Assembly: GCA_964400815.1 (NCBI GenBank)
Contig: CAYNWJ010000002.1
Span: 1 to 43,259, forward strand
Length of the DNA: 43,259 nucleotides
Origin: an uncultured bacterium
GTDB taxonomy: Bacteria > Latescibacterota > Latescibacteria > Latescibacterales > Latescibacteraceae
Reading direction: 5' to 3'
Position numbers and translations under genes: made by a program
Notes under the pieces: generated by a model
Told to the model about the DNA's origin: nothing
Seen by the model: only the letters and a program-made list of their open reading frames with translations
Database searches by the model: none
Shown here: one piece after another, positions 5,881 through 43,259 of the stretch
Numbering within the stretch: the stretch's first letter is position 1
How the letters are laid out: every line of letters begins with the position of its first letter

Positions 5881-5950
5881 ATCTGATTTACCCGTCCAGT
5901 TTGAAGTTATATAAGATAAAGTAATCGGAAATCTCAAAGCTCTCGATTCG

Positions 5951-8420: not shown

Positions 8421-8449
8421 ATGATAAACACTCAATCAAAGTATGTCAA
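8421..8449 (-). promoter_or_regulatory. Candidate sigma70-type promoter (TTGACA-17 nt-TATCAT) for the 8224->1 operon
   Basis: The minus strand reads cTTGACAtactttgattgagtgttTATCATaag. The -35 is at 8444-8449, the -10 at 8421-8426, with a 17-nt spacer. It lies about 190 nt upstream of the 757-aa start. Confidence 0.4.
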
Positions 8450-8810
8450 GCCAAAAAATGCTGCGGCGCTTAATATTTCAAGGCGTATCACTGCGCTACC
8501 GAAATACGGGCCGATTCAGTTTTTCTATACATTAAATGTTGCGATTCTGCAGAGGAAAGAGAGTGTCCAAAACAACCAAACGACACTTTGAAAAGCTCCA
8601 CGAATACTCCATTGGCTTAATTTATTGCACGTTATCAGCCAACACAAGAAAAAAAACAGAAATATTCAATTTTGTTTTCAGCCATTCTCACTCAACACGT
8701 TCAGAGGCGAAGCCCATGGGACCGGCTGATTTCCGAAACATGGAAGCTTCATCCATTCAATGCGCGGCGCGCACTCCCAAGCCAATCTAATTATGTAAAT
8801 CACTTTTTTC

Positions 8811-8839
8811 ATAATGCGTTTGTTTTCACAATCTGTCAA
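8811..8839 (-). promoter_or_regulatory. Second candidate sigma70-type promoter (TTGACA-17 nt-CATTAT), far upstream of the operon
   Basis: The minus strand reads cTTGACAgattgtgaaaacaaacgCATTATgaa. The -35 is at 8834-8839, the -10 at 8811-8816, with a 17-nt spacer. It lies about 580 nt upstream of the next minus-strand CDS and just downstream of the 8883 stop. Confidence 0.3.
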
Positions 8840-8882
8840 GAAAAATTTCTTTCCCCGCTATCCGCACACGTACATCATCTCC

Positions 8883-11150: not shown

Positions 11151-11217
11151 CCCGGGCCGGCTGACGGTGACACCCAAAGGCCGGACACCATACCACCATG
11201 AAAAGGGAGTGTCATAC

Positions 11218-13182
11218 ATGCGCACCGGAACCTGCGTCGGCATCATCATCCGGGCGGTAGTGGCGACCGTCTGCCTTGCATTCTTTGGAGGAACAACATG
11301 GGCTGAAGACCCGGTGCTGGCCGGAACCTTCACCGTCGAACCCCCGACCCTCGAAAACGCCGGTTTCGAATGGACCATCGAGGGCGATGACAACCGCAAT
11401 GCGCGCGTCGACGTTTCATTCCGCGAAAAGGGCGCGTCGGAATGGCGTGACGGGCTGCCGTTCCTGCGCATCCAGGGAGAACGGATCGTCCATCCGGTTG
11501 TCGATGTCGATTTCACAGCGCCGAACATGTTCGCGGGAAGCATCTTCGGTCTCGAACCGGGGACAACCTACGAATGCCGGTTCATTCTCGGCGACCCCGA
11601 CGGTGTTGCCGGAAAGGCTGAACGGACGGTCGAAATCACCACACGTCCCGAGCCCCCGCAAACGGCGGGCGGGCGCGTGCTGCATGTCTATCCTCCCGGA
11701 TACGAGGGTGAAAAGGAGGAGCCCTCCTTCGTCAGCATCATGGAGGCATATTACGGGGCCGGGAAGAGTCTCTGGGGCAGCGCCACGATCAAGCCGGGGG
11801 ACACGATTCTCGTCCACGCCGGCCTTTACCACTGCGAGCGCCGCCGGTATTACGAGCCTCTGGGCATGCATTTTCACGGCACCTATCACCTCTCCGGAAA
11901 CGGCACACCGGAGCAGCCGATCATCATTCGCGGCGCAGGGGACGGAGAGGTTGTCCTGGATGGCGACGGAGTCTACAGGCTGTTCGACGTCATTTACGCC
12001 GATCACACCCATATCGAGGGGTTGACCATCCGCAACTGCGAGGTGGGGATCATGGCCGGGCTCAGGTTTACCGACGGCTGCGACGGCCTGGTGGTCAGGA
12101 ACTGCCGCTTCGAGAACGTGGGCTGCGGGATCAACGCCCAGTTCGGGGGCAGCAGAAATTTCCATATCGCCGACAACACCATCATCGGACGCGAGGATTC
12201 CACCCACACCCACGGCCGTTCCGGCATGTGGCGGGATATCGGCCCGGTCGCGGACCTCAGCTCGTTCATCGCCATCGACATCAACGGCCAGGGACATGTG
12301 GTCCGCAACAACTACATCGCGAATTTCCACGACGGCATCGACATCACCGAGCAGGGCCCGCCCGAACGCGAGGAATGGAAGGTCGTCTCCATCGACATCC
12401 ACAACAATGACATATTCAACTGCACCGACGACTTCATCGAGGCTGATTGCGGAGTGCACAACATCAGGGTGTACGAGAACCGGGGATTCAATGTGGCCTA
12501 TTTCGCCTATTCCGCCCAGCCCATCTATGGCGGTCCTGCGTATTTCATACGGAACATCGCCTGCCACGCGCCCTCCGGCGGTGCGTTCAAATTCAACATC
12601 CACCCGGCGGGCATTTTCGTCTTCCACAACACCATGATCACCGAGTGGGTCCGCAGCGGCAGCTATTCCAACGTCCATCTCAGGAACAATCTCTTCCTGG
12701 GCACGGACGCCCCGGACAGGCCGATCCTCCGGGCGGGGACCTACACCGAATACACCACCTTCGACTACAACGGCTGCAGGCCGAACCGCAACTCCACCAT
12801 CCAGTTCGACTGGCGGTCCCCCGGCCCGGAAACCTTCGTCACCTATCAGCTCCGCGGGGACGACATCCTGTCCGGCAGGTTCGAAACCCTCGAGGAGTTC
12901 ACCGCGGCCACGGGGAGGGAAGAGCACGGGGTCATCGTCGACTACGATATTTTCCGGAACGTCAGACGGCCCGATCCCGATGATCCGGGGCGGCACTATT
13001 ATCCGCAGGATTTCGACTTCCGCCTGCGGCCGGGATCGAAAGCGGTCGATGCGGGAACGCCGCTCCCCAACATCAACGACGATTTCTCGGGTGAGGCTCC
13101 CGACCTGGGCGCGATCGAGCTCGGCGCCGAGCCTCCCGTCTACGGCCCCCGGCCGTGGCTCTATGAACAGCATTCGCGATGA
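11218..13182 (+). CDS. Secreted right-handed parallel beta-helix repeat protein with N-terminal Fn3-like domain (pectate-lyase-fold polysaccharide lyase/hydrolase candidate)
   Basis: Track ORF 11122..13182 trimmed to ATG 11218 (GGGAG 8 nt upstream). Signal peptide MRTGTCVGIIIRAVVATVCLAFFGGTTWA. Repetitive beta-helix coils: IEGLTIRNCEVGIMAG, LVVRNCRFENVGCGINAQ, HVVRNNYIANFHDGIDI, IDIHNNDIFNCTDDFIEAD, IRVYENRGFN. Confidence 0.75.
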   Translation: MRTGTCVGIIIRAVVATVCLAFFGGTTWAEDPVLAGTFTVEPPTLENAGFEWTIEGDDNRNARVDVSFREKGASEWRDGLPFLRIQGERIVHPVVDVDFTAPNMFAGSIFGLEPGTTYECRFILGDPDGVAGKAERTVEITTRPEPPQTAGGRVLHVYPPGYEGEKEEPSFVSIMEAYYGAGKSLWGSATIKPGDTILVHAGLYHCERRRYYEPLGMHFHGTYHLSGNGTPEQPIIIRGAGDGEVVLDGDGVYRLFDVIYADHTHIEGLTIRNCEVGIMAGLRFTDGCDGLVVRNCRFENVGCGINAQFGGSRNFHIADNTIIGREDSTHTHGRSGMWRDIGPVADLSSFIAIDINGQGHVVRNNYIANFHDGIDITEQGPPEREEWKVVSIDIHNNDIFNCTDDFIEADCGVHNIRVYENRGFNVAYFAYSAQPIYGGPAYFIRNIACHAPSGGAFKFNIHPAGIFVFHNTMITEWVRSGSYSNVHLRNNLFLGTDAPDRPILRAGTYTEYTTFDYNGCRPNRNSTIQFDWRSPGPETFVTYQLRGDDILSGRFETLEEFTAATGREEHGVIVDYDIFRNVRRPDPDDPGRHYYPQDFDFRLRPGSKAVDAGTPLPNINDDFSGEAPDLGAIELGAEPPVYGPRPWLYEQHSR

Positions 13183-13199: not shown

Positions 13200-16100
13200 T
13201 CAATCGACGGTGATTTCGACCGAGAACGCTCCCGCCGGAGCATCGAGCGCGACCGTGCGGCTTTCTGCTACCCAGGTGAAACCGACGGTTTCGGAGCCGT
13301 TCAGCACGACCTTCCGGGGCGGCCCGACGGATCCGAACCTGACCGTCCCCGCCTTCGAGTGATAGCACCTGAACCTTCCGGCGTGCCGTTCGAAGGTCAC
13401 CGGCCGTTCCGCGGAAAGAACGGGACGACCGTCCTGCTCGAACCTGGTCGCAAGCGCCGCGAACACCCGTGCGCCGTCCCATGTAACCGCCAGGGCGTCG
13501 GTGACGAATCCGGCGTTCGACCAGACCGATCCGGGCCCGGTCGTGAATGCGAAATCGACGCCCGCCGCAGCGCCGGCAACATGGCCAGCACCCTCGTTCG
13601 TGACGACATCGATCCCCTCCCCGGCCGCCGTCGTCGTCAGCAGGTTCGCCATGACCAGCGGAACCCCGCCGGTTCTCGCGGTCACCGTCAGCATGCCCTC
13701 CCTTTCGAGCGGCTGCCGCTCCTGGAGGGTCCTGAGATAGTGGGGGGTCTCGACACGTTCCACGGCCCTGCGGGCGGGCGCGAGATGCATGAGGTGGAGA
13801 AGCGCGTCCCCGCTCGCGATGGTGGAGTGATCGGCCGCAGCGGTAATATCGTCCAGTCGCTCCGTCTGGTAGAGCAGAGTGACATCCACATCCCCCTCAC
13901 TTCCGGGCGCTGCCTCGTCCAGCATGAGCAGGGTGCTCGGTTTGAGAAAGAGGACATGGCGACGGAGCCGGTCGACCTTGTCCCAGTAGAGCCGGCCGAT
14001 ATCCCCCGTGGCGAACGCCGCGCTCTCACCGTCGAGAAAGTGGTCGATGAAGGCATGATCGTCGAACCCGTCCGCGATGTATTTCGTGTCGCCCGTCCGC
14101 TGGCTCTGATGGTTGCCGTCGATGAGAATGGTGGAATGCCCCACGGGCTGGGTATACCAGGACTGGTAGAGGGGGCCGCTGTAATATGAACTGCCGTGAC
14201 GCTCCTCGATGAAGATCTCGCCGCGGTCCGCCAGCCAGAACGAGCCCTGGTCGATGTGCTGGTGGTTGACGAAGGGGCCGGCCCGCATGACGAACGCGAA
14301 GGCATCCTTCTCCCAGCCGCTCTTGAAAACGATGTTCCCGATGTCACGGAACACCCTCACCGGGTTCTCGTCGTAGGGATCGTCCCGGGGCACATCCTCC
14401 GTCTCGTACAGGACGTCATAGAAGACATCATCGTTCTTCAGATAATTGTACAGCCAGCCGAGCAGCGGCTCATGGGTCTTGTGGAGCAGCCACGCCCACC
14501 TGTCGAGGGGCCGCAGTCCGCCCGAATCCCCGTAGAAGAAATACACCCTGTCCGCGATTTTTCCCGACCAGACGATCTCGCCATAGGATCCCTCCATGAG
14601 CGGGCTGAAGTCGATGCCGAACACATTGTCCACGCAGGGCAGGCTGCGGGCGAGGGCGCGCATGGCCGTGCTGTAATACCCCATCCCCTCGCCGTAGGAT
14701 TCTCCCGCGGTGAATGTTCCCGTCACGAAATCCCGGAGTTTCAAGAAACTTCCACTGAGCCACGGCTCCAGTGTATCCGTCTCCGGCGCATCGCCATACA
14801 CCGCAGCGTGACACATAAGGGCCCCGCCGATCACGTGGGCGATCCAGTTCGATGTGTCGTTGGTCACCATGTCGTCACGGACATAGGTCCTGAACGCGCC
14901 GTACAGGGCGTTTTTCAGGATCGCCGCCCGCGCCCCGGCCGCCTGTTCGCCGCTCATGAGATCGTGGGTCAGGTCATAGGCGAGGGCCACGCGCTGGTGG
15001 AGTTCGCCGTTGCGCAGATAATCGTACCGGCCGCGTTTGAGCATCCAGGGATGATCCCAGTTCGGGAACGAGGAGATGCGCAGGAGCACATCGCGGGCGT
15101 ATTCCCCGGCCTCTCGGTTCCCCAGGAGCCGGTATTCCAGGGCGTTCCAGTACATGGCGTCCCCCCAGTCGAAAAGCACGCCGGTCCAGCGTCCCCATAC
15201 CGGGAGCGCGTCCTCGTCGGGGAACTGGTCGAAATCCCAGTGGATGCCGTCCACGGGGAGTTCCTCACGGCTCGAGGCGGCGTTCCGCAATATGTCCTCC
15301 TTCACACCGGCGAACCGGGAGCTGTTCAGCCGTTCCTTTATCCATGCTTCACGCCCGGCGTCGAACCAGAGCCGGGGGTGGACGCCGCCGATGTCTTCGG
15401 GCGCCACGATAAAGGACAGCCGGCTTTCGGAAAGCAGATCCCCGCCCCGGTATGCCCTGAGCGCGGCAATGTACATGCCCTCCGGAAAATCGATGCGTAC
15501 CGGACGGAGACGCCATGAACCGTTTCGCAGTTCGAGCGCCGACTCATGGACCACGTCCGAATCATCGAGCAGGGGGGTGACAGCGACCGTAACCCGCCCG
15601 GCATCGAGCGGCCATGTTCCCGCGAGTGCCAACGTATCACCGCGCCGGTAATGGCGGGAAGCCACCCGGGGCTTGAACTCGGTCAGTTCGTGTACCGCCG
15701 GCTCGGCGAAACGGAATTCCATGTCGCGCGCGCCCGTGAAGGTCACATCGTCCAGCCCCAGATAGAAGGGCATCGCCGGATCAGCATCGGGGATTTTTGC
15801 GAGAACGGCAAGAGTGTTGACCTTTATCCTGTCACGGCCGGCAAGTCCGGGATTTTCTCCGATGATCCCGGCGAAATCCACCCTGAGCCATACCCAGCGG
15901 TTTACAGGGGGATCGGGAACGGTGACATCGACCTTGCCGTCGGGTCCCGCCGCGATCCTGAGCTTTATGAACTCGCAGGGAAGGTGGGTTTTCAGGTAGT
16001 ACCGGAGTGACACCGACGATCCGGGCGTCATCCAGGCATCGAAGCGTTTCTGGGCGCCTGCGTAGTTGTCCACATTCGTGTAGGGCGTCACGATCTGCAC

Positions 16101-16346
16101 GAGGGAGATGTTGGAATCGCCGGGTGCGATGGTGTTTACACGGATATTCTGGTCGAAGGCGGTGTCCTGCCAGAGGGGATAGGACGCCCAGGCCGCGAGC
16201 GAACCGCCCTCGAAGTCCTGCGTGTATGCATAGGGCTCGAGCACGGTTTCGGCGCACGATTCGGGTGCGGATGCAAGGATCGGAAAGAAGGCGGCCACTG
16301 CCAGAATCGCTGAAGGAAATACATTGATGACACTGTAAACACGCAT
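13200..16346 (-). CDS. Secreted heparinase II/III-like polysaccharide lyase with about 330-aa N-terminal CBM/Ig-like extension
   Basis: Track ORF 13200..16553 trimmed to ATG 16346 (GGGAG upstream). Signal peptide MRVYSVINVFPSAILAVAAFFPILASA. Heparinase II/III C-terminal signature NHQHIDQGSFWLADRGEIFIEERHGSSYY...GHSTILIDGNHQ. An alpha/alpha-toroid-like middle region precedes it. Confidence 0.8.
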   Translation of the reverse strand: MRVYSVINVFPSAILAVAAFFPILASAPESCAETVLEPYAYTQDFEGGSLAAWASYPLWQDTAFDQNIRVNTIAPGDSNISLVQIVTPYTNVDNYAGAQKRFDAWMTPGSSVSLRYYLKTHLPCEFIKLRIAAGPDGKVDVTVPDPPVNRWVWLRVDFAGIIGENPGLAGRDRIKVNTLAVLAKIPDADPAMPFYLGLDDVTFTGARDMEFRFAEPAVHELTEFKPRVASRHYRRGDTLALAGTWPLDAGRVTVAVTPLLDDSDVVHESALELRNGSWRLRPVRIDFPEGMYIAALRAYRGGDLLSESRLSFIVAPEDIGGVHPRLWFDAGREAWIKERLNSSRFAGVKEDILRNAASSREELPVDGIHWDFDQFPDEDALPVWGRWTGVLFDWGDAMYWNALEYRLLGNREAGEYARDVLLRISSFPNWDHPWMLKRGRYDYLRNGELHQRVALAYDLTHDLMSGEQAAGARAAILKNALYGAFRTYVRDDMVTNDTSNWIAHVIGGALMCHAAVYGDAPETDTLEPWLSGSFLKLRDFVTGTFTAGESYGEGMGYYSTAMRALARSLPCVDNVFGIDFSPLMEGSYGEIVWSGKIADRVYFFYGDSGGLRPLDRWAWLLHKTHEPLLGWLYNYLKNDDVFYDVLYETEDVPRDDPYDENPVRVFRDIGNIVFKSGWEKDAFAFVMRAGPFVNHQHIDQGSFWLADRGEIFIEERHGSSYYSGPLYQSWYTQPVGHSTILIDGNHQSQRTGDTKYIADGFDDHAFIDHFLDGESAAFATGDIGRLYWDKVDRLRRHVLFLKPSTLLMLDEAAPGSEGDVDVTLLYQTERLDDITAAADHSTIASGDALLHLMHLAPARRAVERVETPHYLRTLQERQPLEREGMLTVTARTGGVPLVMANLLTTTAAGEGIDVVTNEGAGHVAGAAAGVDFAFTTGPGSVWSNAGFVTDALAVTWDGARVFAALATRFEQDGRPVLSAERPVTFERHAGRFRCYHSKAGTVRFGSVGPPRKVVLNGSETVGFTWVAESRTVALDAPAGAFSVEITVD

Positions 16347-16738
16347 TGTCGGCTCCCGTCCGGTTGAATGAAACGAACATAAGCGGCCGTATTGATTCGA
16401 ATTGCATTCATCAGCCGTAGATCGACACCTGAGAACTATATAACACAGGAGGGGTGGCCCTGCAAGCGGCAGATGGTCGGCCGGCTGCATCCGGGTTGCC
16501 GGGCCGTTGAAAGGACATACGGCCCTCAAACGGACCCCCGGGACCGGATGCATCAGACCGGTGGCTGCATGAAGCCGGTACCGTGAACCATCACCCGCGC
16601 ATTCCGGAGCCGTGAACGCCTGCTTACAGCGAATTCATACCTGTGCGCCCGATATGGAACACATTGTGCACATCCCATATGAAGAACCTCACCCACGCAC
16701 CGGTGAATGCCGGCGCACAGTCAGACGGGAGGATCGAT

Positions 16739-34721: not shown

Positions 34722-35186
34722 TCAGCCTTCGAGCGCCTCTTTCGCCTTCGGTACGGTGTCGAGGGGCTTGACCTTGTACCACGCTCCCGCGATCGTTCCG
34801 TCGCCGTCCACGAGGAACGACGAACGGATGATGCCCATGCTCTTTCTGCCGTACATGTTCTTCCCGCCCCATGCCCCCCATGCCTCGGCGACAGCATGAT
34901 CGGTGTCCGAGAGCAGGGGGAATCCGAGACCGTACTTGTCTTCGAATTTCTTCTGCTTCTCCGGGGTGTCGGGACTGATCCCCACGGCGTCGATGCCCAG
35001 CTGTGAAAGATCGGGCAGCGATTCGCTCACGCTGCACGCCTGCTTTGTACAGCCGGGGGTGTCGGCCCGCGGATAGAAATAGACGAGCAGGCTTCTCCCT
35101 GCAAAATCCGAAAGCTTCACGGTCCCGCCGTTCTGGTCGGTCAGTTCGAACGACGGCGCGGTGTCCCCTTTTTTCAGTGTCGCCAT
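34722..35186 (-). CDS. bcp: Thioredoxin-dependent peroxiredoxin Bcp
   Basis: Track ORF trimmed to ATG 35186 (GGGAGG upstream). GDTAPSFELTDQNG, LVYFYPRADTPGCTKQAC (peroxidatic Cys motif), GISPDTPEKQKKFEDKYGLGFPLLSD. Confidence 0.9.
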   Translation of the reverse strand: MATLKKGDTAPSFELTDQNGGTVKLSDFAGRSLLVYFYPRADTPGCTKQACSVSESLPDLSQLGIDAVGISPDTPEKQKKFEDKYGLGFPLLSDTDHAVAEAWGAWGGKNMYGRKSMGIIRSSFLVDGDGTIAGAWYKVKPLDTVPKAKEALEG

Positions 35187-35254: not shown

Positions 35255-36400
35255 TTACAGCGAAACCACCTCCATGTTCCCAGCCGCGCGGTGGGCAATG
35301 AGGGCCACACGGGTCATTTCGAAGGCATCCGCCTGCGGGACCACGTGGGGCGGCCCTCCCCTGAGCTCCCCGATGAAATCCCCGAAGAACGATCGCTCCT
35401 CCGGAAGCTCCAGATCGACGGGCTCCTCAGATTGGGTGATGAGTTCCACACGCGTGGCCAGGTCCTTGATCTCCACCACACCCTCCGAGCCGATGACCCG
35501 AAGCCGGTCATCCCCGTGCGTGGGCGCGGTCTCCGGCCGGAGATAGTCGATGTTGATCATGGCGGCGCCGCCGTTGTCGAAGCGCAGGGTCATGCCCGCA
35601 TAGTCCTGGAATCCCGGATAGTCAGGATGATCCCTGTTCCCCTGATAGGCGAACACATCGGTATAGGACAGGCCCGTGGTGTAACGGATGTAGTCGAGGG
35701 CATGGATGCCCACCCACGGGATCGTGCCGCCATAGGTCTCCTCACGCTTGTAGAACCACGGTCTGCCCGCTCCGAACTTGTAGGATTTCTGCCCCGTCGC
35801 AAGGATGGGCTCGCCGATCCTCCCCCCTCTGACCGCGTCGTGGAGCGCCCGGAACACCGGCATCATGCGCATGTTGTGCATGGCGGTGAGGCGAACGCCG
35901 CTGCTGACCACGGTATCCAGAAGGCGCGCATAGTCCGCGAGGTTCGTGGCGACCGGTTTTTCGGTGATGACGTGGCATCCACGCGCCGCCGCGGCGATGG
36001 AGGCGGCGGCGTTTTGGTAATAGGGCAGGCACACGCCCACCACGTCGGGCTTCTCGCGGTCGAGCATTTCCTCATAGCCATCATAGCGCCCGGCCCCCGG
36101 CGGCAGGTCCATCTGCGAAGAGCCAAGGTCGGATATGGCGGCGAGGGTGACATGCTCGAGGGAAGGTATCGCGCCGAGAACGATGGACGCATGGCCCACG
36201 ACGCCTATCATCGCCACACGGATCGGCGCGTCCGGCGCGAACGGTTGTATCGGGCGGCGAAAGAGCGATTCCTCCACCCTGCCGATACCGGCTTCGGCCT
36301 TCCTTCCGCCGAACAGGGCGCCCGCCGCCAGCATTCCGGCTCCTGTCATGCTTTCGCGCCGTGAGATACCGGCCGTGTTTCGCCTGTCTTCAGCATCCAT
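35255..36400 (-). CDS. Gfo/Idh/MocA-family oxidoreductase with twin-arginine (Tat) signal
   Basis: Track ORF trimmed to ATG 36400 (GGGAGGA upstream). Tat-like ISRRESMTGAGMLAAGALFG. Rossmann IRVAMIGVVGHA. EKPVA motif (ITEKPVATN). Confidence 0.8.
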   Translation of the reverse strand: MDAEDRRNTAGISRRESMTGAGMLAAGALFGGRKAEAGIGRVEESLFRRPIQPFAPDAPIRVAMIGVVGHASIVLGAIPSLEHVTLAAISDLGSSQMDLPPGAGRYDGYEEMLDREKPDVVGVCLPYYQNAAASIAAAARGCHVITEKPVATNLADYARLLDTVVSSGVRLTAMHNMRMMPVFRALHDAVRGGRIGEPILATGQKSYKFGAGRPWFYKREETYGGTIPWVGIHALDYIRYTTGLSYTDVFAYQGNRDHPDYPGFQDYAGMTLRFDNGGAAMINIDYLRPETAPTHGDDRLRVIGSEGVVEIKDLATRVELITQSEEPVDLELPEERSFFGDFIGELRGGPPHVVPQADAFEMTRVALIAHRAAGNMEVVSL

Positions 36401-36505
36401 GCAATCCTCCCTATCCGTTGTATGCCGCCCGTGTGACCGTTTTCGGGCGGCGTTCGTCACGATACCACCGGTAATCTGCGCCCATTTCTTCACCGAAGGA
36501 CGTAT

Positions 36506-38485
36506 TCATCGTATGGTTTCATCATCGAGAAATTCGTTCCAGACCGTCTCGAACCAGACATCGTCATCCGGGATGGGCCGCACGGGCTCCCATTCAAACC
36601 GGCAGTCGCCCCCGTTCCATACAGCCGACTGTATCATGTCCGACAAATCGTCATCCGGCATCGAGAAGGACACTTCAGCCGGGATTCCCTCCGATTGTTG
36701 TACGCTTCCACTCTCCTTCCGCACGATGAAGGAGCCCCGGCTCTTCCCGCCCCGGTCGATGTAGTCCGCGACAGCCGCGAGAATCATCCGCTGGCAGGCG
36801 AGAAGATCGCGGTTCCCGAACGCCGCGGGAAGCTCCCCGATGGAAGCGAGGACGGTCTCTTCGGCGAGGTTTTCGAAATCGCGCAATGCCTCGTCAGCCC
36901 CATCGGCGGCCGCTTGCCGGTCACGCACGATCCCGCCGCACCGGTCCATGCGTTCCTGTATGCGCTGACGTATGGCTGAGACCGTACCCCCGCCGCCGGC
37001 CGTTGCCGCGAAACGCTCCCCGAGGTCCATGAGTTCTCCCGCCTGCGCGCCGCAGATTGCGATGAAGTCCCCGGTCTCCGGCGGCTCGCCGCGATAGCGC
37101 CGGGCAATGAACTGCGCCGCGCGCGTGCTTCCCGTCTGGCCCGCGTTCAGGGCGCTTCCGCCGGGCCTGCGCACCCCGTGGCCGCCGTTCGCCTCACCCA
37201 CCGGAAAGAGATGCCGGAGCGGGCTTTCCCACCACATATTCCCCGAAAGTCCGCCGTTCATGTGCTGGGCGCAGACGGCGATCTCGAGACGGTCGCGGCG
37301 CAGGTCGGTGCCGTTGTCCCGGAAAAGCTCGTATGCCGGACGGTTCATGTGCTCGAGACGGTCTATCGGAGCGCCGAAAAGCGCCCCCGAGCGTTCGAGA
37401 TAGGAGCGTGTCTCCCCGGAGAGCAGGGTGAAATCGAGCCGGCCCTCTTTCGATGCCGACGGGGGATTTGTCCGGTAATCCAGCCACACGCGCCGTCCGC
37501 GGATGACCGTTTCGCGATAGACGAGCAGATCCACGAGGGAGGAACCGAATCCCGCAGCCTTCGAGGCATCGAAAGGCCACTGGTAGCCCTTGAGGAATAC
37601 GGCGTCCAGCATCGCACCCGGGGAGGGGAAGCAGCCGTCGAGAACGTCCCGCTCATCCCCGCCTTGCGCGTCGGTGGAAACATACCGGGGCAGCACCTGC
37701 TGATAGGCGCCTGAAAGATTCCAGCGGAACCCGACGGAAGCGATGCCGAACTGGGACTCCGTGAGGTTGCATCCGGGCGCTCCCGCCAGAAACGCCGCTC
37801 CGGTGGCGCCCTCCTGGAGGACGGGCCATACCGAGGCGCCGTACATGCCCGCCGGCCCGCCGGTGGCATACACGATGTTCGTGCAGTTGAACAGCACATA
37901 TCGTCCGCCGGGATCGTCGAGCCGCCCGGCATCGAGGGCGAGAAGCCCCGCAGCGCGCGTCCCCCCCGCATCTGTCAGCACGCCGATTATATGGTAACCG
38001 TCGAAGATGGCGATGTTCCTGTCCCCGACATCCGCGCGGAGTCGTTCCGCCATGTACCGTGAGGTGAGAGGGCCGGCCGAGGTGGCGCGCCGGCGGGGAT
38101 CGTGATCTGTCCTGTAGCCCGCGTATTCGCCGCAGCGCGTGTGGGGAAAAGGCACTCCAGCCTCCACCAGCCGGAAAAAGCAGCGCGCCGAAAGCGCCGC
38201 CTCCACGAGGGCGATGTCTCCGTGCATGGCCCCGCCGCCGTGGAGCGTCTCCGCCATTTCGCGGACGGAATCGCCTTCCCTCCCGGCAAGGGTGAGTTTG
38301 TAATAGGTCTGCTTGTCGGAGCCGGTATTGAGCGAGGTCCCCCGTTCGAGACCGTCCGTCACCACGGCGATATCGGTCTGGCCGAAAGAATGGAGCCGGC
38401 CTGCCGCGTTCAGCCCGGCCGCGCCCGATCCGGCCACGACGGTGTTCAGGGAGAACACGCGCACCGTGCGGCCCATCAATGTCAT
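36506..38485 (-). CDS. FAD-binding flavoprotein of the succinate dehydrogenase/fumarate reductase/L-aspartate oxidase (FAD_binding_2) type
   Basis: Start is ATG 38485, or GTG 38500, which lies 4 nt after GGGAGG. VVAGSGAAGLNAAGRL (GxGxxG). HMNGGL...FPVGEANGGHGVRRPGGSALNAGQTG resembles the C-terminal FAD-contact motif. No signal peptide. Confidence 0.75.
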   Translation of the reverse strand: MTLMGRTVRVFSLNTVVAGSGAAGLNAAGRLHSFGQTDIAVVTDGLERGTSLNTGSDKQTYYKLTLAGREGDSVREMAETLHGGGAMHGDIALVEAALSARCFFRLVEAGVPFPHTRCGEYAGYRTDHDPRRRATSAGPLTSRYMAERLRADVGDRNIAIFDGYHIIGVLTDAGGTRAAGLLALDAGRLDDPGGRYVLFNCTNIVYATGGPAGMYGASVWPVLQEGATGAAFLAGAPGCNLTESQFGIASVGFRWNLSGAYQQVLPRYVSTDAQGGDERDVLDGCFPSPGAMLDAVFLKGYQWPFDASKAAGFGSSLVDLLVYRETVIRGRRVWLDYRTNPPSASKEGRLDFTLLSGETRSYLERSGALFGAPIDRLEHMNRPAYELFRDNGTDLRRDRLEIAVCAQHMNGGLSGNMWWESPLRHLFPVGEANGGHGVRRPGGSALNAGQTGSTRAAQFIARRYRGEPPETGDFIAICGAQAGELMDLGERFAATAGGGGTVSAIRQRIQERMDRCGGIVRDRQAAADGADEALRDFENLAEETVLASIGELPAAFGNRDLLACQRMILAAVADYIDRGGKSRGSFIVRKESGSVQQSEGIPAEVSFSMPDDDLSDMIQSAVWNGGDCRFEWEPVRPIPDDDVWFETVWNEFLDDETIR

Positions 38486-38561
38486 CGTATCTTCGCGCAC
38501 CGAACCTCCCGAAAAATCCGTTCGCCCGTAACGGGCGGACGGCACACAGCCGCCGGTCCGT

Positions 38562-40004
38562 TTACCGGAACATCCCGCGGATCATGTCCGTGAGCGGCCC
38601 CCATTTCTTCACGACGAGGAACACCACGCTGACACAGGTGACCGCGAGGGAAAGCAGCATCGCACCGTTCCACAGCATCGCCGAACGTCCCTTCGGACGG
38701 TCGTCGCCGAGATAGCGTGTGCTGTTCTGCAGCACGAACCATCCGATATAGGGGATCGGGAGCATGATCAGACAGAAAGCCGAGGTGGGCAGGGCTATCC
38801 AGGTCCCGAGGGACGACCACAGCACCACGCCCAGGAAGGCGGGAGCCGGAAGCAGGCAGGCCAGGCGATAGTTCCACCCGCCCGGCTCCAGACCGAAAAT
38901 CTCGCAGACGGCGAAACCCGACACCAGCATGTGAAGCGTTATCGTGCTCAGGGCCATGCCGAGCACCCCCAGCCCGAAGATGATGCGCCCGAAGAACGGA
39001 CCGACGCCGGCGGCCCCGATCATGACACCGGCGTTCGCGGGGTTGATCGTCGCTGACGCGTGTTCGGTCCCGTAAATGGTGCATGCCGCGGAAATGACGA
39101 CCAGGGCGGTCACGAGGGCATAGGGCATGAACATGCCGGTCATGATGTCGAATGTGGCGAGGCCGCGATGCTCCTTGCCCCATCCGCGGGCGAGGAGCGT
39201 GTAGCCGAAGAGGAATGTCATGTTGACGCCGACCGCCGCGCTGAAAGCCGCCATGACCTGCGTGACCCCCGCCGGATCGCGGGGTATATACAGGGGCAAA
39301 AATCCACGTAAAAGCGCGCCCCAGTCGATGGCCCCGGCAATCGCGCTCCTGATGACCACGAGGAAAAACGCTCCCACGATCATGAATATGAATCCCTTGA
39401 GCAGCCGCTCATAGAGCCTGATGCCGCCGAATCCGCGCCCGTAATTCCAGGTTATCGCCGTGGAGACCGCGAGGATCAGGAGCCCGACAGCCAGGAGTGT
39501 CAGCGTCCGGACGGCGCCGTCGGGTTGCCAGCCGGTCAGGGCCGTGATCATATCCTCGCTCACCCCGGCGGCCAGGGCATATTGCGGAAGGTGCCAGACC
39601 ACGGTGGCCACGAGGGTGGCAATCGCCCACATCCAGGCGAATGCCGGATGAACGAACCGCTTCATGGTGTCGAAGGGACGAACACAGGTGGACAGTGTCT
39701 GGTGCGCCGCCGCCATGAGCATGATGATGCCCGCCAGCATGGCCAGCGGCTGCACCCACAGGAGCTTGTAGCCGTAATGTGTACCCAGGTAGAGCGACGC
39801 CATGGCGGTGCCGCTCCCGAGCGTGAAGGCGCTCTGGAGGAACCCGGGGCCCGTTTTCGAGAAATACCACCTCCAGCGTTTCCCGACGGGGGCGTCCTCC
39901 AGGCTCTTCAGTTCGCCGCGCTCCCGTTCCAGCATCTCGGGATCGGACGCGGTGAACAGGGGCAGGCCGCAGATTTCGGGCCGCGTATCGTCTCTTTCAG
40001 TCAT
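38562..40004 (-). CDS. NRAMP-fold (MntH-related) transporter with a non-canonical binding site
   Basis: 480-aa polytopic ORF with AAAGGA upstream of ATG 40004. GPGFLQSAFTLGSGTAMASLYLGTHYGYKLLWV aligns by eye with MntH GPGFL......DPGN......GY.LLW, but DPGN is replaced by GSGT. Confidence 0.65.
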   Translation of the reverse strand: MTERDDTRPEICGLPLFTASDPEMLERERGELKSLEDAPVGKRWRWYFSKTGPGFLQSAFTLGSGTAMASLYLGTHYGYKLLWVQPLAMLAGIIMLMAAAHQTLSTCVRPFDTMKRFVHPAFAWMWAIATLVATVVWHLPQYALAAGVSEDMITALTGWQPDGAVRTLTLLAVGLLILAVSTAITWNYGRGFGGIRLYERLLKGFIFMIVGAFFLVVIRSAIAGAIDWGALLRGFLPLYIPRDPAGVTQVMAAFSAAVGVNMTFLFGYTLLARGWGKEHRGLATFDIMTGMFMPYALVTALVVISAACTIYGTEHASATINPANAGVMIGAAGVGPFFGRIIFGLGVLGMALSTITLHMLVSGFAVCEIFGLEPGGWNYRLACLLPAPAFLGVVLWSSLGTWIALPTSAFCLIMLPIPYIGWFVLQNSTRYLGDDRPKGRSAMLWNGAMLLSLAVTCVSVVFLVVKKWGPLTDMIRGMFR

Positions 40005-40056
40005 GAACGTCCTTTCGGGATGGTTACGAATCCGTCACAGGACCATGCGCCGGGAT

Positions 40057-41499
40057 TCACCGCCCGAACATGGCCTCGTAGTGGGCGGACGGGAGAAATA
40101 TCCCCCCGCTTCTTTCATAGAAATCACCGTCCAGCTCGAACACCCCGTCCACCGCCTCCGTCCAGGAAGCGCCGGCGCAGGGGTGCTTTTCCTTCATGGC
40201 CTGCCAGTTACGGTAATTCTGATGACCGTTGGTCTCGAGAAGACCCGTACCCAGACCGGGGAACGGTGCGAGCCGTGCGGCCACGTTCTTGTTCCAGTCC
40301 ACGAGGATGGGATTCACCGTAAGGTCGGCGCAGAAACAGGGTATCCCGCGCTCGTGGGCGGTTTTCGCAATCTTCAGGGTCATGCTCAGGGTCTTGGCGA
40401 TGGGCTTGAGAGCGATGGCGCCGTACCCCATCTCGATGCGCCTGGCCGCGTCGGTGTCGGTGTGGGCGCTCTCGTCGGCGGCGATGCGGACACCCATGCC
40501 GCCCACATCCGCCTCGTATTCCTCCGGGAAGGGTTCCTCGATGACGGCGATACGGTCGCGGGCGCCGATACGGTCTGCGTGATCGAGAAGCCGGAGCAGG
40601 GCCTCCTTCGTCTCGTAGCGCCCGTTGGCGTCGAAATAGTACGGCAGCCGGCCGTCTTCGGTCCAGGGCGTTTCGCGGCCGCCGATGGCGTCATGAATGG
40701 CGGAGAGACGGGCCATATCCTTTTCGAGCATCTCCTCCTGGCTTCCCGGCTGGCCGATCTTGATCTTCATGAAGAAGAAACCGTCGTCAACCGCCCCGAC
40801 GATCTCGCTGACGGGAACGCCATAGGCCATGAGCGGGATCGCCGCCACGCGGTCGTGACGGTGCGCGAGAACCGGGCGGTATTCCGGGGGGATCATGTCG
40901 TCGAAACTCCCGATCCCCCGTTCGGCGGCATACAGGAGCCACGCGGCGTTGTCGAATCCCACAAGGGCGTTGAGGGCGAAGGTCTTCCTGAGGGCGTCAT
41001 TGCCCGTGATCGTTTTGCCGTACGCGCAGACATCCCCGAGAACGGCGTCGAGCAGCTCGATGGGCGTGGAGAAGCTCATTCCCCGCGCACGGCGGAGGGC
41101 GAACTCCGTCATGGCGTACATGAGGGCGTTCCCGCCGCTCTCCGAGTGGGCGGCGAACACCGAAGCGTCCGACCACAGCACACTCTGGGTGCAGAGGCCG
41201 ATCCCGTGTGCGCCGGATTCCCCCGCCATGAGCGCCGCCGTCTGCCATATCTCAGACATGTAGCCGCCCTTGAACCCGAACGGCCGCACGAGAGGCTCGC
41301 GCTCGAAATCGGCGTCCACGTCTGTCAGGGTCGTTGCTTTTTGTGTCATCGCTCCGTCCGTTTCGTCACCTGCGACTGCCGCTGCCGTCCCGACACCGGC
41401 CATGGCCGCGCAGAAAGCGCCCGCACCGGCGGCCCGCCCGAGAAATCCCCGCCGAGTCCGGCCGCATGCAGAACCCCTTTGCGTGTCATGACCGGTCAT
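40057..41499 (-). CDS. Enolase-superfamily (mandelate racemase/muconate lactonizing enzyme-like) protein with Tat signal
   Basis: Start is ATG 41499 (alternative ATG 41541). RTRRGFLGRAAGAGAFCAAMAGVGTAAAVAG is a twin-arginine signal. Metal and acid-base motifs: FFMKIKIG, YYFDANGRY, AVIEEPF, RIAADES. Confidence 0.75.
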   Translation of the reverse strand: MTGHDTQRGSACGRTRRGFLGRAAGAGAFCAAMAGVGTAAAVAGDETDGAMTQKATTLTDVDADFEREPLVRPFGFKGGYMSEIWQTAALMAGESGAHGIGLCTQSVLWSDASVFAAHSESGGNALMYAMTEFALRRARGMSFSTPIELLDAVLGDVCAYGKTITGNDALRKTFALNALVGFDNAAWLLYAAERGIGSFDDMIPPEYRPVLAHRHDRVAAIPLMAYGVPVSEIVGAVDDGFFFMKIKIGQPGSQEEMLEKDMARLSAIHDAIGGRETPWTEDGRLPYYFDANGRYETKEALLRLLDHADRIGARDRIAVIEEPFPEEYEADVGGMGVRIAADESAHTDTDAARRIEMGYGAIALKPIAKTLSMTLKIAKTAHERGIPCFCADLTVNPILVDWNKNVAARLAPFPGLGTGLLETNGHQNYRNWQAMKEKHPCAGASWTEAVDGVFELDGDFYERSGGIFLPSAHYEAMFGR

Positions 41500-41524
41500 G
41501 CCGCGCCCGCCGGTTGAGGACGTG

Positions 41525-42475
41525 TCAGATGAGCCCCGCATCGGCGAGCAGGCCGCGCAGGGCGTTCAGGTCCTTCTTCATGATTTCCGTGGCCCCGCGC
41601 CGCGTTTCCTCGTAGTGATATTCGAAGTGCATGGTCACCGGCGCCACGACCCCCAGTTCGCGCACCAGGTCGAAATACGCCGCGAAATCGACCATTCCCT
41701 CGCCGATGGGCGTGTTCACCACCCGCCATTTCCCATCGACCACACCCCACTTGAAGTCCTTGATCACAAGGGAGCCGATGAAGGGCCTGATCAGCCTGAG
41801 GCCGAGGGGCCAGGAGGTCCCGCCCTCCACCGTGGCGTGCCGTATGTCATACTGACAGCCGATGTGACGGGGATCGAGGTTTTTGAGGGCATACCAGATG
41901 TCCCACACCGTGGCCCCCACGTTCGTGCCGGCATGGTTCTGATAATCACCGCGGATACCGAGCGAGGCGTTCAGGTCAGCCAGGGCGCCCAGCCGGGAAC
42001 GGTGGGCTTCAAGGGATTCGGCGACTCCCTTTTCGAGGTCGTAGTTCAGGTAGCCGAGGCGGTAGATGCGAAATCCCTCCTTCGCCGCCGTTCCGAGCAC
42101 GGTCTCCGCGTGGGGGCTGTCGGGACCGGTGACCGCGGTGGTGATCATGGTGGTGTCGAGGCCGTTCTGCCGCACGGCTTCCGCGGCGCGGGGCAGGTCT
42201 TCCGCCGCCCGTTCGGGGAGAACATGCCCCCCCGGCCGCGTGGGAATATCGACACCGTCGAAACCGATTTCCTTCGCCGTCTCCGCCATTTCGGGATAGT
42301 CGAGGAACTGGAGATGTTTCGTGAACACGCAGACGCCGGTCACCCGGCCCTTTCCGCCGGTCTGCGCGGAAGCCGGTCCCGGCGTGAACGCTCCCGCGGC
42401 GAGCGCGGCCGTCCCTCCCATGAATTGACGGCGGCTCATGGCTTTCGCCGCATGTTCCGTCGTGTCACCGTGCAT
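41525..42475 (-). CDS. Xylose-isomerase-like TIM-barrel sugar phosphate isomerase/epimerase family protein with Tat signal
   Basis: 316-aa ORF with GAGGAG 6 nt upstream of ATG 42475. MSRRQFMGGTAALAAGAFTPGPASAQ is a twin-arginine signal. FDGVDI.., YQNHAG, VTMHFEY are typical of the AP-endonuclease-2/xylose-isomerase-like fold. Confidence 0.8.
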   Translation of the reverse strand: MHGDTTEHAAKAMSRRQFMGGTAALAAGAFTPGPASAQTGGKGRVTGVCVFTKHLQFLDYPEMAETAKEIGFDGVDIPTRPGGHVLPERAAEDLPRAAEAVRQNGLDTTMITTAVTGPDSPHAETVLGTAAKEGFRIYRLGYLNYDLEKGVAESLEAHRSRLGALADLNASLGIRGDYQNHAGTNVGATVWDIWYALKNLDPRHIGCQYDIRHATVEGGTSWPLGLRLIRPFIGSLVIKDFKWGVVDGKWRVVNTPIGEGMVDFAAYFDLVRELGVVAPVTMHFEYHYEETRRGATEIMKKDLNALRGLLADAGLI

Positions 42476-42517
42476 TGTCGTCTCCTCGTTTCGGGCGTGG
42501 CGGCCTTCCCGGCCGTG

Positions 42518-43259
42518 TCAGGTCAGTTTCCATGGCTTGCGGTATTCATAGGTCAGGAGGTCGTTTGCGGACGGCAGGTTGGTGATGCGTTCGCGTCCGG
42601 CGTCCCACTCGATGCGGGTCCGCGTCTCGAGGGCGATGTTCGCCAGGTGCGCGAAGCTGGTCGACCGATGGCCCTCCTCGATGTCGCACCAGCAGCGTTC
42701 CCGTGACCTGACACAGTCGAGGAAATTACGGACCAGGTTCTTCGTGGGGTCCTCCCGAACATCCAGCCGGAAATCCCCGCCGCCGGTCAGATGTTCCCAC
42801 TCCTGGAACTGGCCGTTTCGCGCCGGCTCGATGGAATATCCGCGCTCCGAGGCGATGAGGGTCCCCTTCGTACCCCGGAGCTCGATCTCGCCGCCGGGAA
42901 CGCCCGCGCCGCCGCATGCCTCATAGATGCCGAAGATGACCACCGCGCCGGAGGGCATCTCGAAGGTGACCTCCATGGTGTCCGGAATGGTCCGGTCGTC
43001 CTCGAGCACGAATTGCCCACCGTGTGCGGTCACCGCCGACGGGGCCGTTTCGCCCATCAGCCAGCGGATGCTGTCCATGTAGTGCACACCCCAGTTGCCC
43101 ATCTGTGTGGAATAGGATTTCCACCACCGGAACTTGTAGGGATGAATGTTGGTCTGGAAGGGCCGCATCGCCCTCGGGCCGAGCCACATGTCCCAGTCGA
43201 AGGTCTCGGGAGGCTGCGTGTGCTCCCTGCGCCCGATGCCGTCGGGAAACATGTCGCTG
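42518..43259 (-). CDS. Gfo/Idh/MocA-family oxidoreductase, C-terminal domain only (N-terminus lies beyond the window end)
   Basis: The reading frame is open to the window edge. WDMWLGP...FRWWKSYSTQMGNWGVHYMDSIRW...TMEVTFEM is the typical C-terminal alpha/beta domain of large Gfo/Idh/MocA proteins. Confidence 0.7.
   Translation of the reverse strand, partial: SDMFPDGIGRREHTQPPETFDWDMWLGPRAMRPFQTNIHPYKFRWWKSYSTQMGNWGVHYMDSIRWLMGETAPSAVTAHGGQFVLEDDRTIPDTMEVTFEMPSGAVVIFGIYEACGGAGVPGGEIELRGTKGTLIASERGYSIEPARNGQFQEWEHLTGGGDFRLDVREDPTKNLVRNFLDCVRSRERCWCDIEEGHRSTSFAHLANIALETRTRIEWDAGRERITNLPSANDLLTYEYRKPWKLT

Follow-up and report, generated by a model that had tools for sequence, protein, structure and literature searches.

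The locus described here occupies one end of a 43,259-nucleotide (nt) stretch of DNA from an uncultured member of the Latescibacteraceae (contig CAYNWJ010000002.1 of assembly GCA_964400815.1; the whole stretch is referred to as the window) and consists of six consecutive genes, G1 to G6, which form a real, uncharacterised sugar-breakdown operon (Table 1). The first-pass annotation of this DNA described six minus-strand genes with gaps of 25 to about 105 nt, and the open reading frames (ORFs), the Pfam matches and the measured gaps (42, 25, 52, 76 and 105 nt from G1 to G6, using the best-supported starts) bear out both that layout and the domains it named. Shine-Dalgarno sequences precede the ATG codons of G2 (GGAG, start at 42475), G4 (AAGGA, 40004) and G6 (GGGAGG, 36400). 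Terminator-like and promoter-like matches occur at the level expected from shuffled sequence and all lie inside coding regions, with none in the G1–G6 intergenic gaps; an Rfam scan of the operon region identified no family, and a repeat search of the same region returned only short, chance-level matches.

Table 1. Positions of the operon genes, of other features of the window and of genes in related contigs (contig designations precede the colon; aa, amino acids)
Feature	Position	Strand	Description
G1	42518-43259	-	Gfo/Idh/MocA oxidoreductase, C-terminal 246 aa; Pfam GFO_IDH_MocA_C2/C3/C; N-terminus past the window edge
G2	41525-42475	-	AP_endonuc_2 xylose-isomerase-like TIM barrel, 316 aa, Pfam E 9e-22; SRRQFM at 42419-42436
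G3	40057-41499	-	Divergent enolase-superfamily enzyme, 480 aa, Pfam MR_MLE_C; TRRGFL at 41440-41457; alternative start 41541
G4	38562-40004	-	NRAMP-family permease, 480 aa, Pfam Nramp 67.5 bits; GSGT 39807-39818, AAVG 39228-39239
G5	36506-38485	-	FrdA/SdhA/NadB-like flavoprotein, FAD_binding_2; 659 aa from ATG 38485; longest ORF from GTG 38545
G6	35255-36400	-	Gfo/Idh/MocA oxidoreductase, 381 aa, Pfam GFO_IDH_MocA and C3 domain; SRRESM at 36347-36364
Peroxiredoxin	34722-35186	-	Bcp/PrxQ-type thiol peroxidase
Putative lyase	13200-16553	-	1117-aa protein with heparinase II/III C-terminal domain
Putative lyase	11122-13182	+	686-aa protein with right-handed beta-helix
ORF antisense to G3/G4	39802-41517	+
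ORF antisense to G2	41498-42706	+
ORF antisense to G6	35291-36364	+
Secreted ~530-aa protein	L001:14922-16514; L167:10199-11500		Follows the flavoprotein gene
~490-aa protein	L024:1865-3337		Opitutaceae; directly downstream of a signal-less enolase homologue
GNAT acetyltransferase	L120:11442-12287		Example of the gene beside the NRAMP-like gene (L087-L166)
Thermotoga cluster	L083:6697-13113		T. petrophila CP000702; OYE-FAD-Gfo412-Gfo328-Mem_trans

The gene order is kept in three related contigs (designated L001, L167 and L089) at protein identities of about 50–83%. The closest of these, L167 (71–83% for the enolase, NRAMP-like and flavoprotein genes), reads old yellow enzyme (OYE), zinc-dependent alcohol dehydrogenase (Zn-ADH), Gfo and TIM barrel (triosephosphate-isomerase-type barrel), both with signals for twin-arginine translocation (Tat), enolase, NRAMP-like permease, flavoprotein and a secreted 530-residue protein. 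L001 (about 54–74% identical) has the same order with insertions, namely a second NRAMP paralogue, a GCN5-related N-acetyltransferase (GNAT), a GHL10-like lipoprotein and the 530-residue protein, after which come an orthologue of G6, a peroxiredoxin and folate genes; L089 carries the ADH, Gfo, TIM, enolase and NRAMP-like genes and then ends. Because all three contigs repeat the arrangement together with upstream genes, the sequence past the window edge almost certainly carries ADH and OYE genes ahead of G1, and the operon would comprise at least eight genes in the syntenic order OYE, Zn-ADH, G1 to G6. The linkage of the six genes noted in the first-pass annotation is thus genuine, and its account of a six-gene operon was incomplete, since the relatives have OYE and Zn-ADH genes upstream of G1. 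The window lacks the secreted protein of about 530 residues that follows the flavoprotein gene in L001 and L167, the copies of which share 71% identity and match no Pfam family.

The genes G1 to G3 recur elsewhere as a Gfo–TIM–enolase cassette. In a scan of one genome per species covering 80 enolase loci, just two neighbours of the enolase gene proved widely conserved, the TIM-barrel gene in 44 loci and the G1-type Gfo in 41, always arranged as Gfo–TIM–enolase; a G6-type gene was found in none of the 80. This and the other neighbourhood counts given below were obtained with our own longest-ORF calling, include many short contigs and cover, for each scan, the 80 loci that resemble the query most closely, and are therefore to be read as lower bounds that are possibly biased. 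Hosts of the cassette include Bacteroidota, Verrucomicrobiota, Acidobacteriota, Calditrichota, Latescibacterota, Rhodothermaceae, Kiritimatiellia and Lentisphaerae, and one host, the flavobacterium Hyunsoonleella flava T58, is cultured; the cassette also recurs in Fidelibacterota and in further contigs, and its distribution covers at least eight phyla.

The first two members of this cassette resemble a known kind of system, the periplasmic Gfo and TIM-barrel pair. In the periplasmic 3-keto-glycoside pathway of Alistipes (AL1-AL4) and Bacteroides thetaiotaomicron (BT2156-2160), a Tat-exported Gfo enzyme with tightly bound nicotinamide adenine dinucleotide (NAD) oxidises C3 of a glycoside, TIM-barrel and DUF1080 proteins eliminate the aglycone and rehydrate the product, and the keto-sugar is re-reduced, so that the sequence is redox-neutral (bioRxiv 10.1101/2024.03.25.586180). 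The G1-type Gfo resembles the dehydrogenases of that pathway: the L001 orthologue of G1 (GFO453, 60% identical) has as its best PDB matches the glycoside 3-dehydrogenases 8TDH and 8TDF, with the 'glucuronide-3-dehydrogenase' 8TDI matching more weakly, and the top-scoring NCBIfam model for G1-type proteins is BT_2158_fam (43–152 bits, against a cut-off of 750). G2 shares the AP_endonuc_2 domain with the 'sugar phosphate isomerase'-type TIM-barrel lyase of the pathway. Searches of the PDB with the single G2 sequence and with a 26-member family profile matched uncharacterised entries only (3TVA, 3P6L and 3WQO). None of the six operon genes has a DUF1080 domain in Pfam; DUF1080 genes do occur in related enolase loci (cluster c6 in eight loci and cluster c11 in six), as does ThuA. 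The pathway differs from the present operon in having no enolase-superfamily partner, whereas here a permease and a flavoprotein are attached in addition.

The enolase-like protein G3 is a divergent member of its superfamily. Its AlphaFold2 model (pLDDT 87, with residues 1–51 disordered) has the capping domain and modified TIM barrel of the superfamily, in agreement with the MR_MLE_C match, and Foldseek aligned it with many enolases of the mandelate racemase (MR) and muconate-lactonising enzyme (MLE) type at 14–21% identity, probability 1.0 and query-normalised TM-scores of 0.5–0.6, including dipeptide epimerases, 3,6-anhydro-L-galactonate cycloisomerase and L-talarate dehydratase. The superfamily's catalytic apparatus is retained, with a KxK motif on strand 2 (K245-I-K247), three acidic metal ligands and a lysine on strand 6: K245-I-K247, D290, E321/E322, D342 and K365 are invariant in 62 homologues, and the catalytic residues align with LDGNG, LEQP, AADES and NIK of 3S5S. 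This KxK, metal-ligand and second-lysine layout is shared, together with the fold, with the MLE subgroup (dipeptide epimerases, o-succinylbenzoate synthase (OSBS) and 3,6-anhydro-L-galactonate cycloisomerase), from which G3 differs in carrying a Tat signal and in being only 14–21% identical to any solved member. Membership in the named families OSBS, Ala-Glu epimerase and DgcA is not indicated by the NCBIfam scores (16–23 bits against cut-offs of 130–500), and the database name 'L-Ala-D/L-Glu epimerase' was rejected because the scores lie far below these cut-offs. A single-sequence search of the PDB gave no useful match, and the family profile matched one entry (E 2.5e-4). The family is compact: 531 of 1.84 billion cluster representatives at 50% identity match at E ≤ 0.001, more than 6,400 homologues were found (62–83% identity among the matches listed), and members are about 56–83% identical across at least eight phyla. 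To our knowledge, no exported member of the enolase superfamily has been characterised.

Tat export of G1, G2 and G3 is well supported by sequence, whereas that of G6 is probable. The motifs SRRQFM (G2), TRRGFL (G3) and SRRESM (G6) all lie downstream of the best-supported starts, so that the objection that the true starts might follow the motifs is not borne out and their positions stand as first annotated. With the curated Tat model TIGR01409 (cut-off 16.7 bits), G2 scores 21.2 bits and passes; G3 of the window scores 7.7 bits, below the cut-off, and its L001 orthologue passes at 22.9 bits; G6 has no match to this model. The N-terminus missing from G1 is represented in its orthologues by KRRTFL followed by a hydrophobic region in L001 and by SRRRFL in L167. 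Among relatives, a twin-arginine (RR) motif followed by a hydrophobic region is present in 43 of 45 G1-type, 33 of 46 G2-type and 50 of 72 G3-type ORFs, the 45 G1-type ORFs being family members that adjoin an enolase-like gene, of which the 43 carry a strict RR motif. This conservation backs the periplasmic location proposed earlier for the Gfo, TIM-barrel and enolase-type enzymes. In G6, SRRESM is followed by GAGMLAAGALFGG-RKAEA, with the basic RK and the AEA coming after the hydrophobic stretch, and the L001 orthologue has GRRRALAGIGALGASVFAG; in both proteins the RR motif thus precedes a Gly/Ala-rich hydrophobic stretch. The signal-less subset of the enolase homologues is mostly from Opitutaceae, with some from Bacteroidota, and is often paired with a TIM-barrel gene only, which indicates that the TIM and enolase pair can also work in the cytoplasm. 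A Pfam census around these signal-less homologues was diffuse, with sulfatases, members of glycoside hydrolase family 95 (GH95) and other MR/MLE proteins. Directly downstream of a signal-less homologue in three Opitutaceae loci (L024, L058 and L063) lies a protein of about 490 residues, whose cluster spans six loci; it shows enolase-like motifs (FKIKING, LDGNES, VEQP and IIIDESD) and matches no Pfam or NCBIfam family.

The permease G4 is a member of the NRAMP (SLC11) family without the residues that bind metal. The Pfam domain PF01566 covers residues 73–434 with 67.5 bits (cut-off 29.8), the conserved GPG(F/W)L at the start of transmembrane helix 1 (TM1) is present, and the family profile matches EleNRMT, DMT1, NRAMP1 and NRAT, the best solved relative being EleNRMT (7QIA, E 2.3e-7). 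In NCBIfam, G4 falls below the cut-offs of both Nramp_1 (32.5 bits against 50) and MntH (22.2 bits against 430). Known SLC11 signatures are DxxN-A/CxxM (metal), DxxN-AxxT (NRAT) and DxxG-TxxA/T (NRMT), all of which keep the TM1 aspartate (PMC8806188). Alignment to human DMT1, rice NRAT and EleNRMT places G63-S-G-T66 and A256-A-V-G259 of G4 at the metal-ligand positions, with replacement of Asp by G63, Asn/Gly by T66 and Met/Ala by G259, and with A256 and G259 where known clades have Ala, Cys or Thr and Met, Thr or Ala, respectively; neither the metal signature nor its NRMT variant is present. The resulting GxxS/T-AxxG signature is invariant, or varies between Ser and Thr, in 16 diverse homologues, and distinguishes G4 from the SLC11 members including EleNRMT, as do its occurrence in sugar-oxidoreductase loci and its sub-cut-off NCBIfam score. 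The assignment of G4 as a classical metal NRAMP was rejected, the metal signature being lost.

Among metagenome loci with enough flanking sequence to reveal any neighbours, most have the NRAMP-like gene amid sugar-oxidoreductase genes, and in the 80 metagenome loci the recurrent neighbours were a convergent GNAT gene (28 loci) and a Tat-signal Gfo gene immediately downstream (25 loci), with DUF6807, ThuA, an aldo-keto reductase and another TIM barrel also recurring. The GNAT protein has an Acetyltransf_18 C-terminal domain, and in L001 a GNAT gene lies between the two NRAMP paralogues; this neighbour hints at an amine-bearing solute and is left unexplained by a sugar-acid model. In other genomes the cassette is followed by transporters of the tripartite ATP-independent periplasmic (TRAP) type or by anion-type members of the major facilitator superfamily (MFS), which backs the transporter step that the first-pass annotation placed after the periplasmic enzymes. 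The main argument for import of the pathway product by G4 is that organic-anion transporters follow the cassette elsewhere, as the NRAMP-like gene does here, which makes G4 the probable importer.

The flavoprotein G5 has no signal peptide, its GSGAAG dinucleotide-binding strand being reached already at residue 19, and together with its fold this agrees with the earlier description of a cytoplasmic flavin adenine dinucleotide (FAD) flavoprotein. FAD_binding_2 scores 31 bits (cut-off 20.4), FrdA and SdhA match at E 4e-23 with TM-scores of 0.6–0.75, and Foldseek with the AlphaFold2 model (pLDDT 82) ranks FrdA/SdhA first, followed by AprA (adenosine 5'-phosphosulfate reductase) and NadB, at 13–18% identity. 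A single-sequence PDB search gave no match, and the best score against the curated SdhA/FrdA, NadB and TfrA families was 63 bits (cut-off 718). By inspection, two motifs of G5, QH-x-NGG and RPGGSALN, may be counterparts of the His and Arg motifs with which fumarate reductases hold a carboxylate. Partners of a complex II, i.e. iron-sulfur and membrane-anchor proteins, are encoded neither in the window operon nor in eight related contexts, and a complex-II-type fumarate reductase was rejected for this reason; the database name 'succinate dehydrogenase flavoprotein' was likewise discarded, the scores being far below the cut-offs.

The usual partner of G5 is instead an OYE-family protein. Homologues of G5 are linked to an OYE gene in seven contexts, in six of them also to an ADH or a short-chain dehydrogenase/reductase (SDR) gene, the OYE neighbour being found in L001, L167, L085, L168, L169/170 and L083/084. 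In other arrangements the homologues are 55–71% identical to G5 and include OYE-SDR-FAD in Clostridiales, OYE-ADH-FAD near a GH106 gene in an uncultured bacterium (L168), OYE-ADH-NRAMP-FAD followed by a GH78 rhamnosidase gene in a Latescibacterota contig (L085), and Gfo-FAD-DMT-GDSL esterases near a pectate lyase gene in Orenia. The cluster in the cultured organism Thermotoga petrophila is tightly coupled and uncharacterised: its frames overlap by 4–7 nt and encode, in a sugar-utilisation region, OYE435, FAD664 (58% identical to G5), Gfo412 and Gfo328 (34% identical to G6) and a Mem_trans carrier, which replaces the NRAMP-like permease; its proteins are without signal peptides and without an enolase-like or TIM-barrel partner. 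This cluster presumably corresponds to TM0424-TM0428 of T. maritima, and 3IP3, presumably TM0425, may be the equivalent of Gfo328 in that species. The best PDB match of G6 is 3IP3, a putative oxidoreductase (E 2.5e-52); a phmmer comparison with precursor glucose-fructose oxidoreductase (GFOR; 1H6A) gave a modest similarity (E 3e-15) with the match beginning at G6 residue 7, inside the signal region. Because G6 is orthologous to a cytoplasmic Thermotoga enzyme linked to the flavoprotein, it is not simply the third member of a periplasmic trio: the RR motifs on which the first-pass annotation based its three Tat enzymes are present, and the grouping of G6 with the other two does not hold in that form.

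Coupling of an OYE-family protein to a FAD_binding_2 protein of fumarate-reductase fold is a feature that the G5 loci share with known NADH:2-enoate reductases. In the latter the OYE-like and FAD_binding_2 domains are parts of one enzyme, whereas here they are separate, genetically coupled polypeptides, and G5 further differs in its extra helical and C-terminal domains, which are FrdA/SdhA-like. The FrdA-like fold and the OYE partner of G5 favour reduction of a C=C bond beside a carboxylate no less than the further oxidation in the cytoplasm that was first proposed.

The genomic context points to an acidic sugar or acidic glycoside as the substrate class. Enolase-superfamily chemistry begins with removal of the proton next to a carboxylate, and an acid is accordingly expected as the substrate of G3. 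Carboxylates are the usual cargo of TRAP systems, and in a complete Fidelibacterota genome the locus comprises, in order, an Alginate_lyase-domain protein, Gfo, ThuA, TIM, a sulfatase, the enolase and TRAP DctPQM. Several Bacteroidales loci carry, after the enolase gene, genes for an SDR resembling gluconate-5-dehydrogenase (IdnO) or KduD, an anion:cation symporter of the MFS, for which the best model is the D-galactonate transporter subfamily, and an RbsD/FucU-like protein. A standalone cassette lies beside a rhamnogalacturonan lyase gene of polysaccharide lyase family 11 (PL11) in one contig; the cassette in L172 has as neighbours a weakly matching glucuronoyl-esterase-like hydrolase and GH116, with a gene for a divalent anion:sodium symporter (DASS) a few genes downstream. 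The neighbours of the enolase genes also include fucosidases (GH29 and GH95), sulfatases, DUF1080 proteins and a sialate-type esterase, and pectate lyase genes lie near the G5 homologues of Thermotoga and Orenia. In the window itself, two proteins encoded about 20 kb from the operon, one with a heparinase II/III C-terminal domain and one with a right-handed beta-helix (Table 1), may be uronate-polysaccharide lyases. These neighbours, together with two enzyme folds of carboxylate type (G3 and G5), suggest as the substrate an acidic sugar released from glycans that are sulfated or contain uronates.

A general scheme consistent with these observations is as follows. G1 with tightly bound NAD, the metal-dependent G2 and G3, and probably also G6, would fold with their cofactors in the cytoplasm and then be exported by the Tat system. 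In the periplasm, G1 would oxidise a sugar hydroxyl to a ketone, so that the neighbouring proton becomes acidic; the TIM barrel G2 would then carry out an elimination, isomerisation or epimerisation, after which G3 would abstract the proton beside the carboxylate, leading to elimination, ring opening or epimerisation. Re-reduction of the ketone in the last periplasmic step would regenerate the bound NAD+ with no net redox change. The carboxylate-bearing product would enter the cell through G4, and in the cytoplasm G5 would act on the C–C or C=C bond beside the carboxylate, probably forming with the upstream OYE a two-protein NAD(P)H:2-enoate-type reductase, while the Zn-ADH would complete the conversion by adjusting a hydroxyl or keto group. 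Because no enzyme of the operon has a characterised close relative, every activity in this scheme is inferred, as are the substrate and the order of the reactions, and the scheme (conversion of an acidic sugar or glycoside in the periplasm without net redox change, import through G4 and cytoplasmic handling by flavoenzymes) is put forward as a working model whose chances fall a little short of even. Of the sequence of periplasmic oxidation, dehydration or epimerisation and isomerisation proposed in the first-pass annotation, the exported enzymes are retained and a net oxidation is not, being unlikely without an electron acceptor and at variance with the redox-neutral precedent. The presence of GH29, GH95, GH78 and GH106 and a FucU-like gene in related loci prompted consideration of a route resembling non-phosphorylative fucose or rhamnose breakdown, with periplasmic C1 oxidation of an aldose to an aldonate and dehydration by the enolase-type enzyme. 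This route was kept at low probability because it would require a periplasmic NAD enzyme to operate without an oxidant, unless it disproportionates in the manner of GFOR.

Comparison with other characterised systems gives partial likenesses only. GFOR of Zymomonas mobilis, cited at first as the precedent for Tat export of a cofactor-loaded Gfo-family enzyme, remains valid in that respect, and the 3-keto-glycoside pathway is a closer one for the Gfo and TIM pair, as judged from the best PDB matches of the G1 orthologue; GFOR works alone and disproportionates two free sugars, whereas here the Gfo enzyme belongs to a cassette with two other exported enzymes. In Escherichia coli, the Zn-ADH YcjQ, the TIM-barrel 3-keto-glycoside epimerase YcjR and the Gfo enzyme YcjS interconvert gulosides and glucosides, all in the cytoplasm. 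Genes of the same three families (Zn-ADH, AP_endonuc_2 TIM barrel and Gfo/Idh/MocA) are adjacent in L001 and L167, but the E. coli system has no enolase, NRAMP-like or flavoprotein partner, and G2 has no sequence match to a characterised TIM barrel. The earlier statement that no characterised pathway has this composition is in accord with the PDB, NCBIfam and the literature, in which none was found; the sources searched likewise contain no characterised counterpart of the exported enolase partner, of the NRAMP protein that has lost its metal ligands or of the FrdA-like flavoprotein module. The literature consulted on the Gfo/TIM/enolase combination, on periplasmic or Tat-exported enolases, on Thermotoga TM0425-0428 and on enolases in polysaccharide loci contained no description of such a system, with partial coverage that leaves its absence unproven.

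Several observations weigh against the working model. The profiles of the enolase, TIM-barrel and FAD families match only distant or uncharacterised PDB entries, and the FMN_bind domain of known 2-enoate reductases, which binds FMN covalently, was not found in G5 or in neighbouring genes. About 20% of the enolase homologues have no signal peptide at all, the curated Tat model misses G6, and the Thermotoga orthologue of G6 is cytoplasmic. Outside the lineage of the window, the partners of the NRAMP-like gene (GNAT, Tat-Gfo, ThuA and DUF6807) imply no carboxylate. The OYE and Zn-ADH genes are placed by synteny, the window stopping short of their position. An exact-match search with the G4 protein, intended to extend the contig, returned no record. 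The full gene composition occurs only in the window's own lineage, so that the modules may act on different substrates: an NRAMP-like or FAD gene was found in none of the 80 enolase loci of the genome scan, and an enolase gene in one of the 80 NRAMP loci, counts that rest on longest-ORF calling and on the 80 most query-similar loci of each scan. The operon is thus a composite whose modules are mostly separate in other genomes.

This composite nature underlies the chief rival explanation, which holds that the genes are merely co-located, and perhaps co-transcribed, and serve two or three separate pathways, the cassette acting on one periplasmic substrate, the OYE, ADH and flavoprotein (with or without G6) forming a cytoplasmic reductase module for another compound, and the permease serving one of the two. 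The modules are apart in nearly all genomes sampled (the FAD and NRAMP genes being missing from the cassette in 80 of 80 loci), the surroundings of OYE-SDR-FAD in Clostridiales are unrelated to sugars, L168 has OYE-ADH-FAD on its own, and the NRAMP-like gene usually has other partners. Against this, OYE-ADH and the flavoprotein gene flank the cassette and the permease at short distances in this lineage, the arrangement is kept in relatives down to about 50–60% identity (L001, L167 and L089), and OYE-ADH-NRAMP-FAD in L085 ties the permease to the flavoprotein module. Such a juxtaposition is considered unlikely, with a chance that is still appreciable. A slimmer chance is given to the view that G4 imports Mn2+ or Mg2+ with which the TIM barrel and the enolase-type enzyme are loaded in the cytoplasm before export. 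Tat substrates acquire their cofactors before export, G2 and G3 belong to metal-dependent families, and G4 is a Pfam Nramp member with the Mg2+ transporter EleNRMT as closest solved relative, but all ligand positions of G4 are replaced (Asp to Gly, Asn/Gly to Ser/Thr and Met/Ala to Gly), invariantly across its family. Moreover, all of the SLC11 signatures compiled in PMC8806188 keep the TM1 aspartate, G4 lies under the NCBIfam Nramp cut-off, and in other lineages the cassette is succeeded by transporters of organic anions.

The active site of G3, with Lys/Lys as in the MLE subgroup to which dipeptide epimerases belong, could alternatively reflect an amino-acid or peptide pathway in which G3 is a dipeptide or N-acyl amino acid epimerase or racemase, G5 is an amino-acid oxidase resembling L-aspartate oxidase and the substrate is a peptide or an amino-sugar conjugate. 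The weak best matches in NCBIfam (OSBS, DgcA and Ala-Glu epimerase for G3, with NadB among those of G5) and the GNAT acetyltransferases beside the NRAMP-like gene in 28 loci would fit. These scores are far under the family cut-offs, however (e.g. 23 bits against 288), and the conserved neighbours are sugar enzymes (Gfo, TIM, ThuA, DUF1080, GH29, GH95, sulfatases, polysaccharide lyases and sugar-acid transporters), which makes this reading improbable. Least probable, to a degree that it can be largely set aside, is co-export of G5 in complex with Tat-tagged G6, which would place all the chemistry in the periplasm and leave G4 to import the end product. Other flavo- and metalloenzymes are known to be exported by such Tat hitch-hiking, G6 follows immediately after G5 and has the RR motif and hydrophobic region, and homologues of both are encoded in one tight Thermotoga cluster with an intervening Gfo gene and overlapping frames; yet L168, L169 and L085 have G5 and no homologue of G6, and OYE, with which G5 is usually associated, would depend on NAD(P)H of the cytoplasm.

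Downstream of G6 the gene cluster appears to end, because the peroxiredoxin gene that follows after 68 nt has its own strong GGGAGG ribosome-binding site and convergent folate genes come next. An AhpC-TSA gene holds the same position in L001. The peroxiredoxin could be co-transcribed with the flavoenzyme-rich operon, which possibly makes peroxide. The long ORFs of 357–571 residues that run antisense to G3/G4, G2 and G6 (Table 1), a similar 'family' of which appeared as cluster c7 in the clustering of loci, are most likely artefacts of high GC content and of conserved coding sequence on the opposite strand. The GC content of the window is about 47–55% at positions 1–9000 and 60–66% at positions 10000–43259; the low-GC part encodes proteins related to type IX secretion, with PorV-like and CHU_C domain matches, and these secretion markers suggest the Fibrobacterota-Chlorobiota-Bacteroidota (FCB) superphylum.

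Periplasmic sugar chemistry by Tat-exported Gfo and TIM-barrel enzymes, self-contained in its cofactors, is a recently recognised route of glycan breakdown, which is coupled here to three further uncharacterised components. The locus settles no long-standing question and provides well-defined, testable targets, among which the permease and the enolase family are the parts likeliest to surprise specialists. A more specific proposal, that the NRAMP clade with the GxxS/T-AxxG signature (more than 2,000 sequences in the search) imports an organic solute instead of a metal ion, namely a sugar acid or keto-sugar produced by periplasmic oxidoreductases, and that the compact, highly conserved Tat-exported enolase acts periplasmically, beside a Gfo and TIM pair of the 3-keto-glycoside type, on acidic sugars of sulfated or uronate-bearing glycans, is doubtful as a whole, though not far-fetched; if it is true, the clade and the exported enolase would each be the first of their kind. 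Should G4 carry an organic solute, the range of SLC11 would extend beyond metal cations and thousands of annotations as 'Mn2+/Fe2+ transporter' would need correction. Since its members are about 56–83% identical in at least eight phyla and have fucosidase, sulfatase and uronate-lyase neighbours, the enolase-like family may mark a widespread, as yet unassigned step by which acidic glycans from algae, plants or hosts are turned over.

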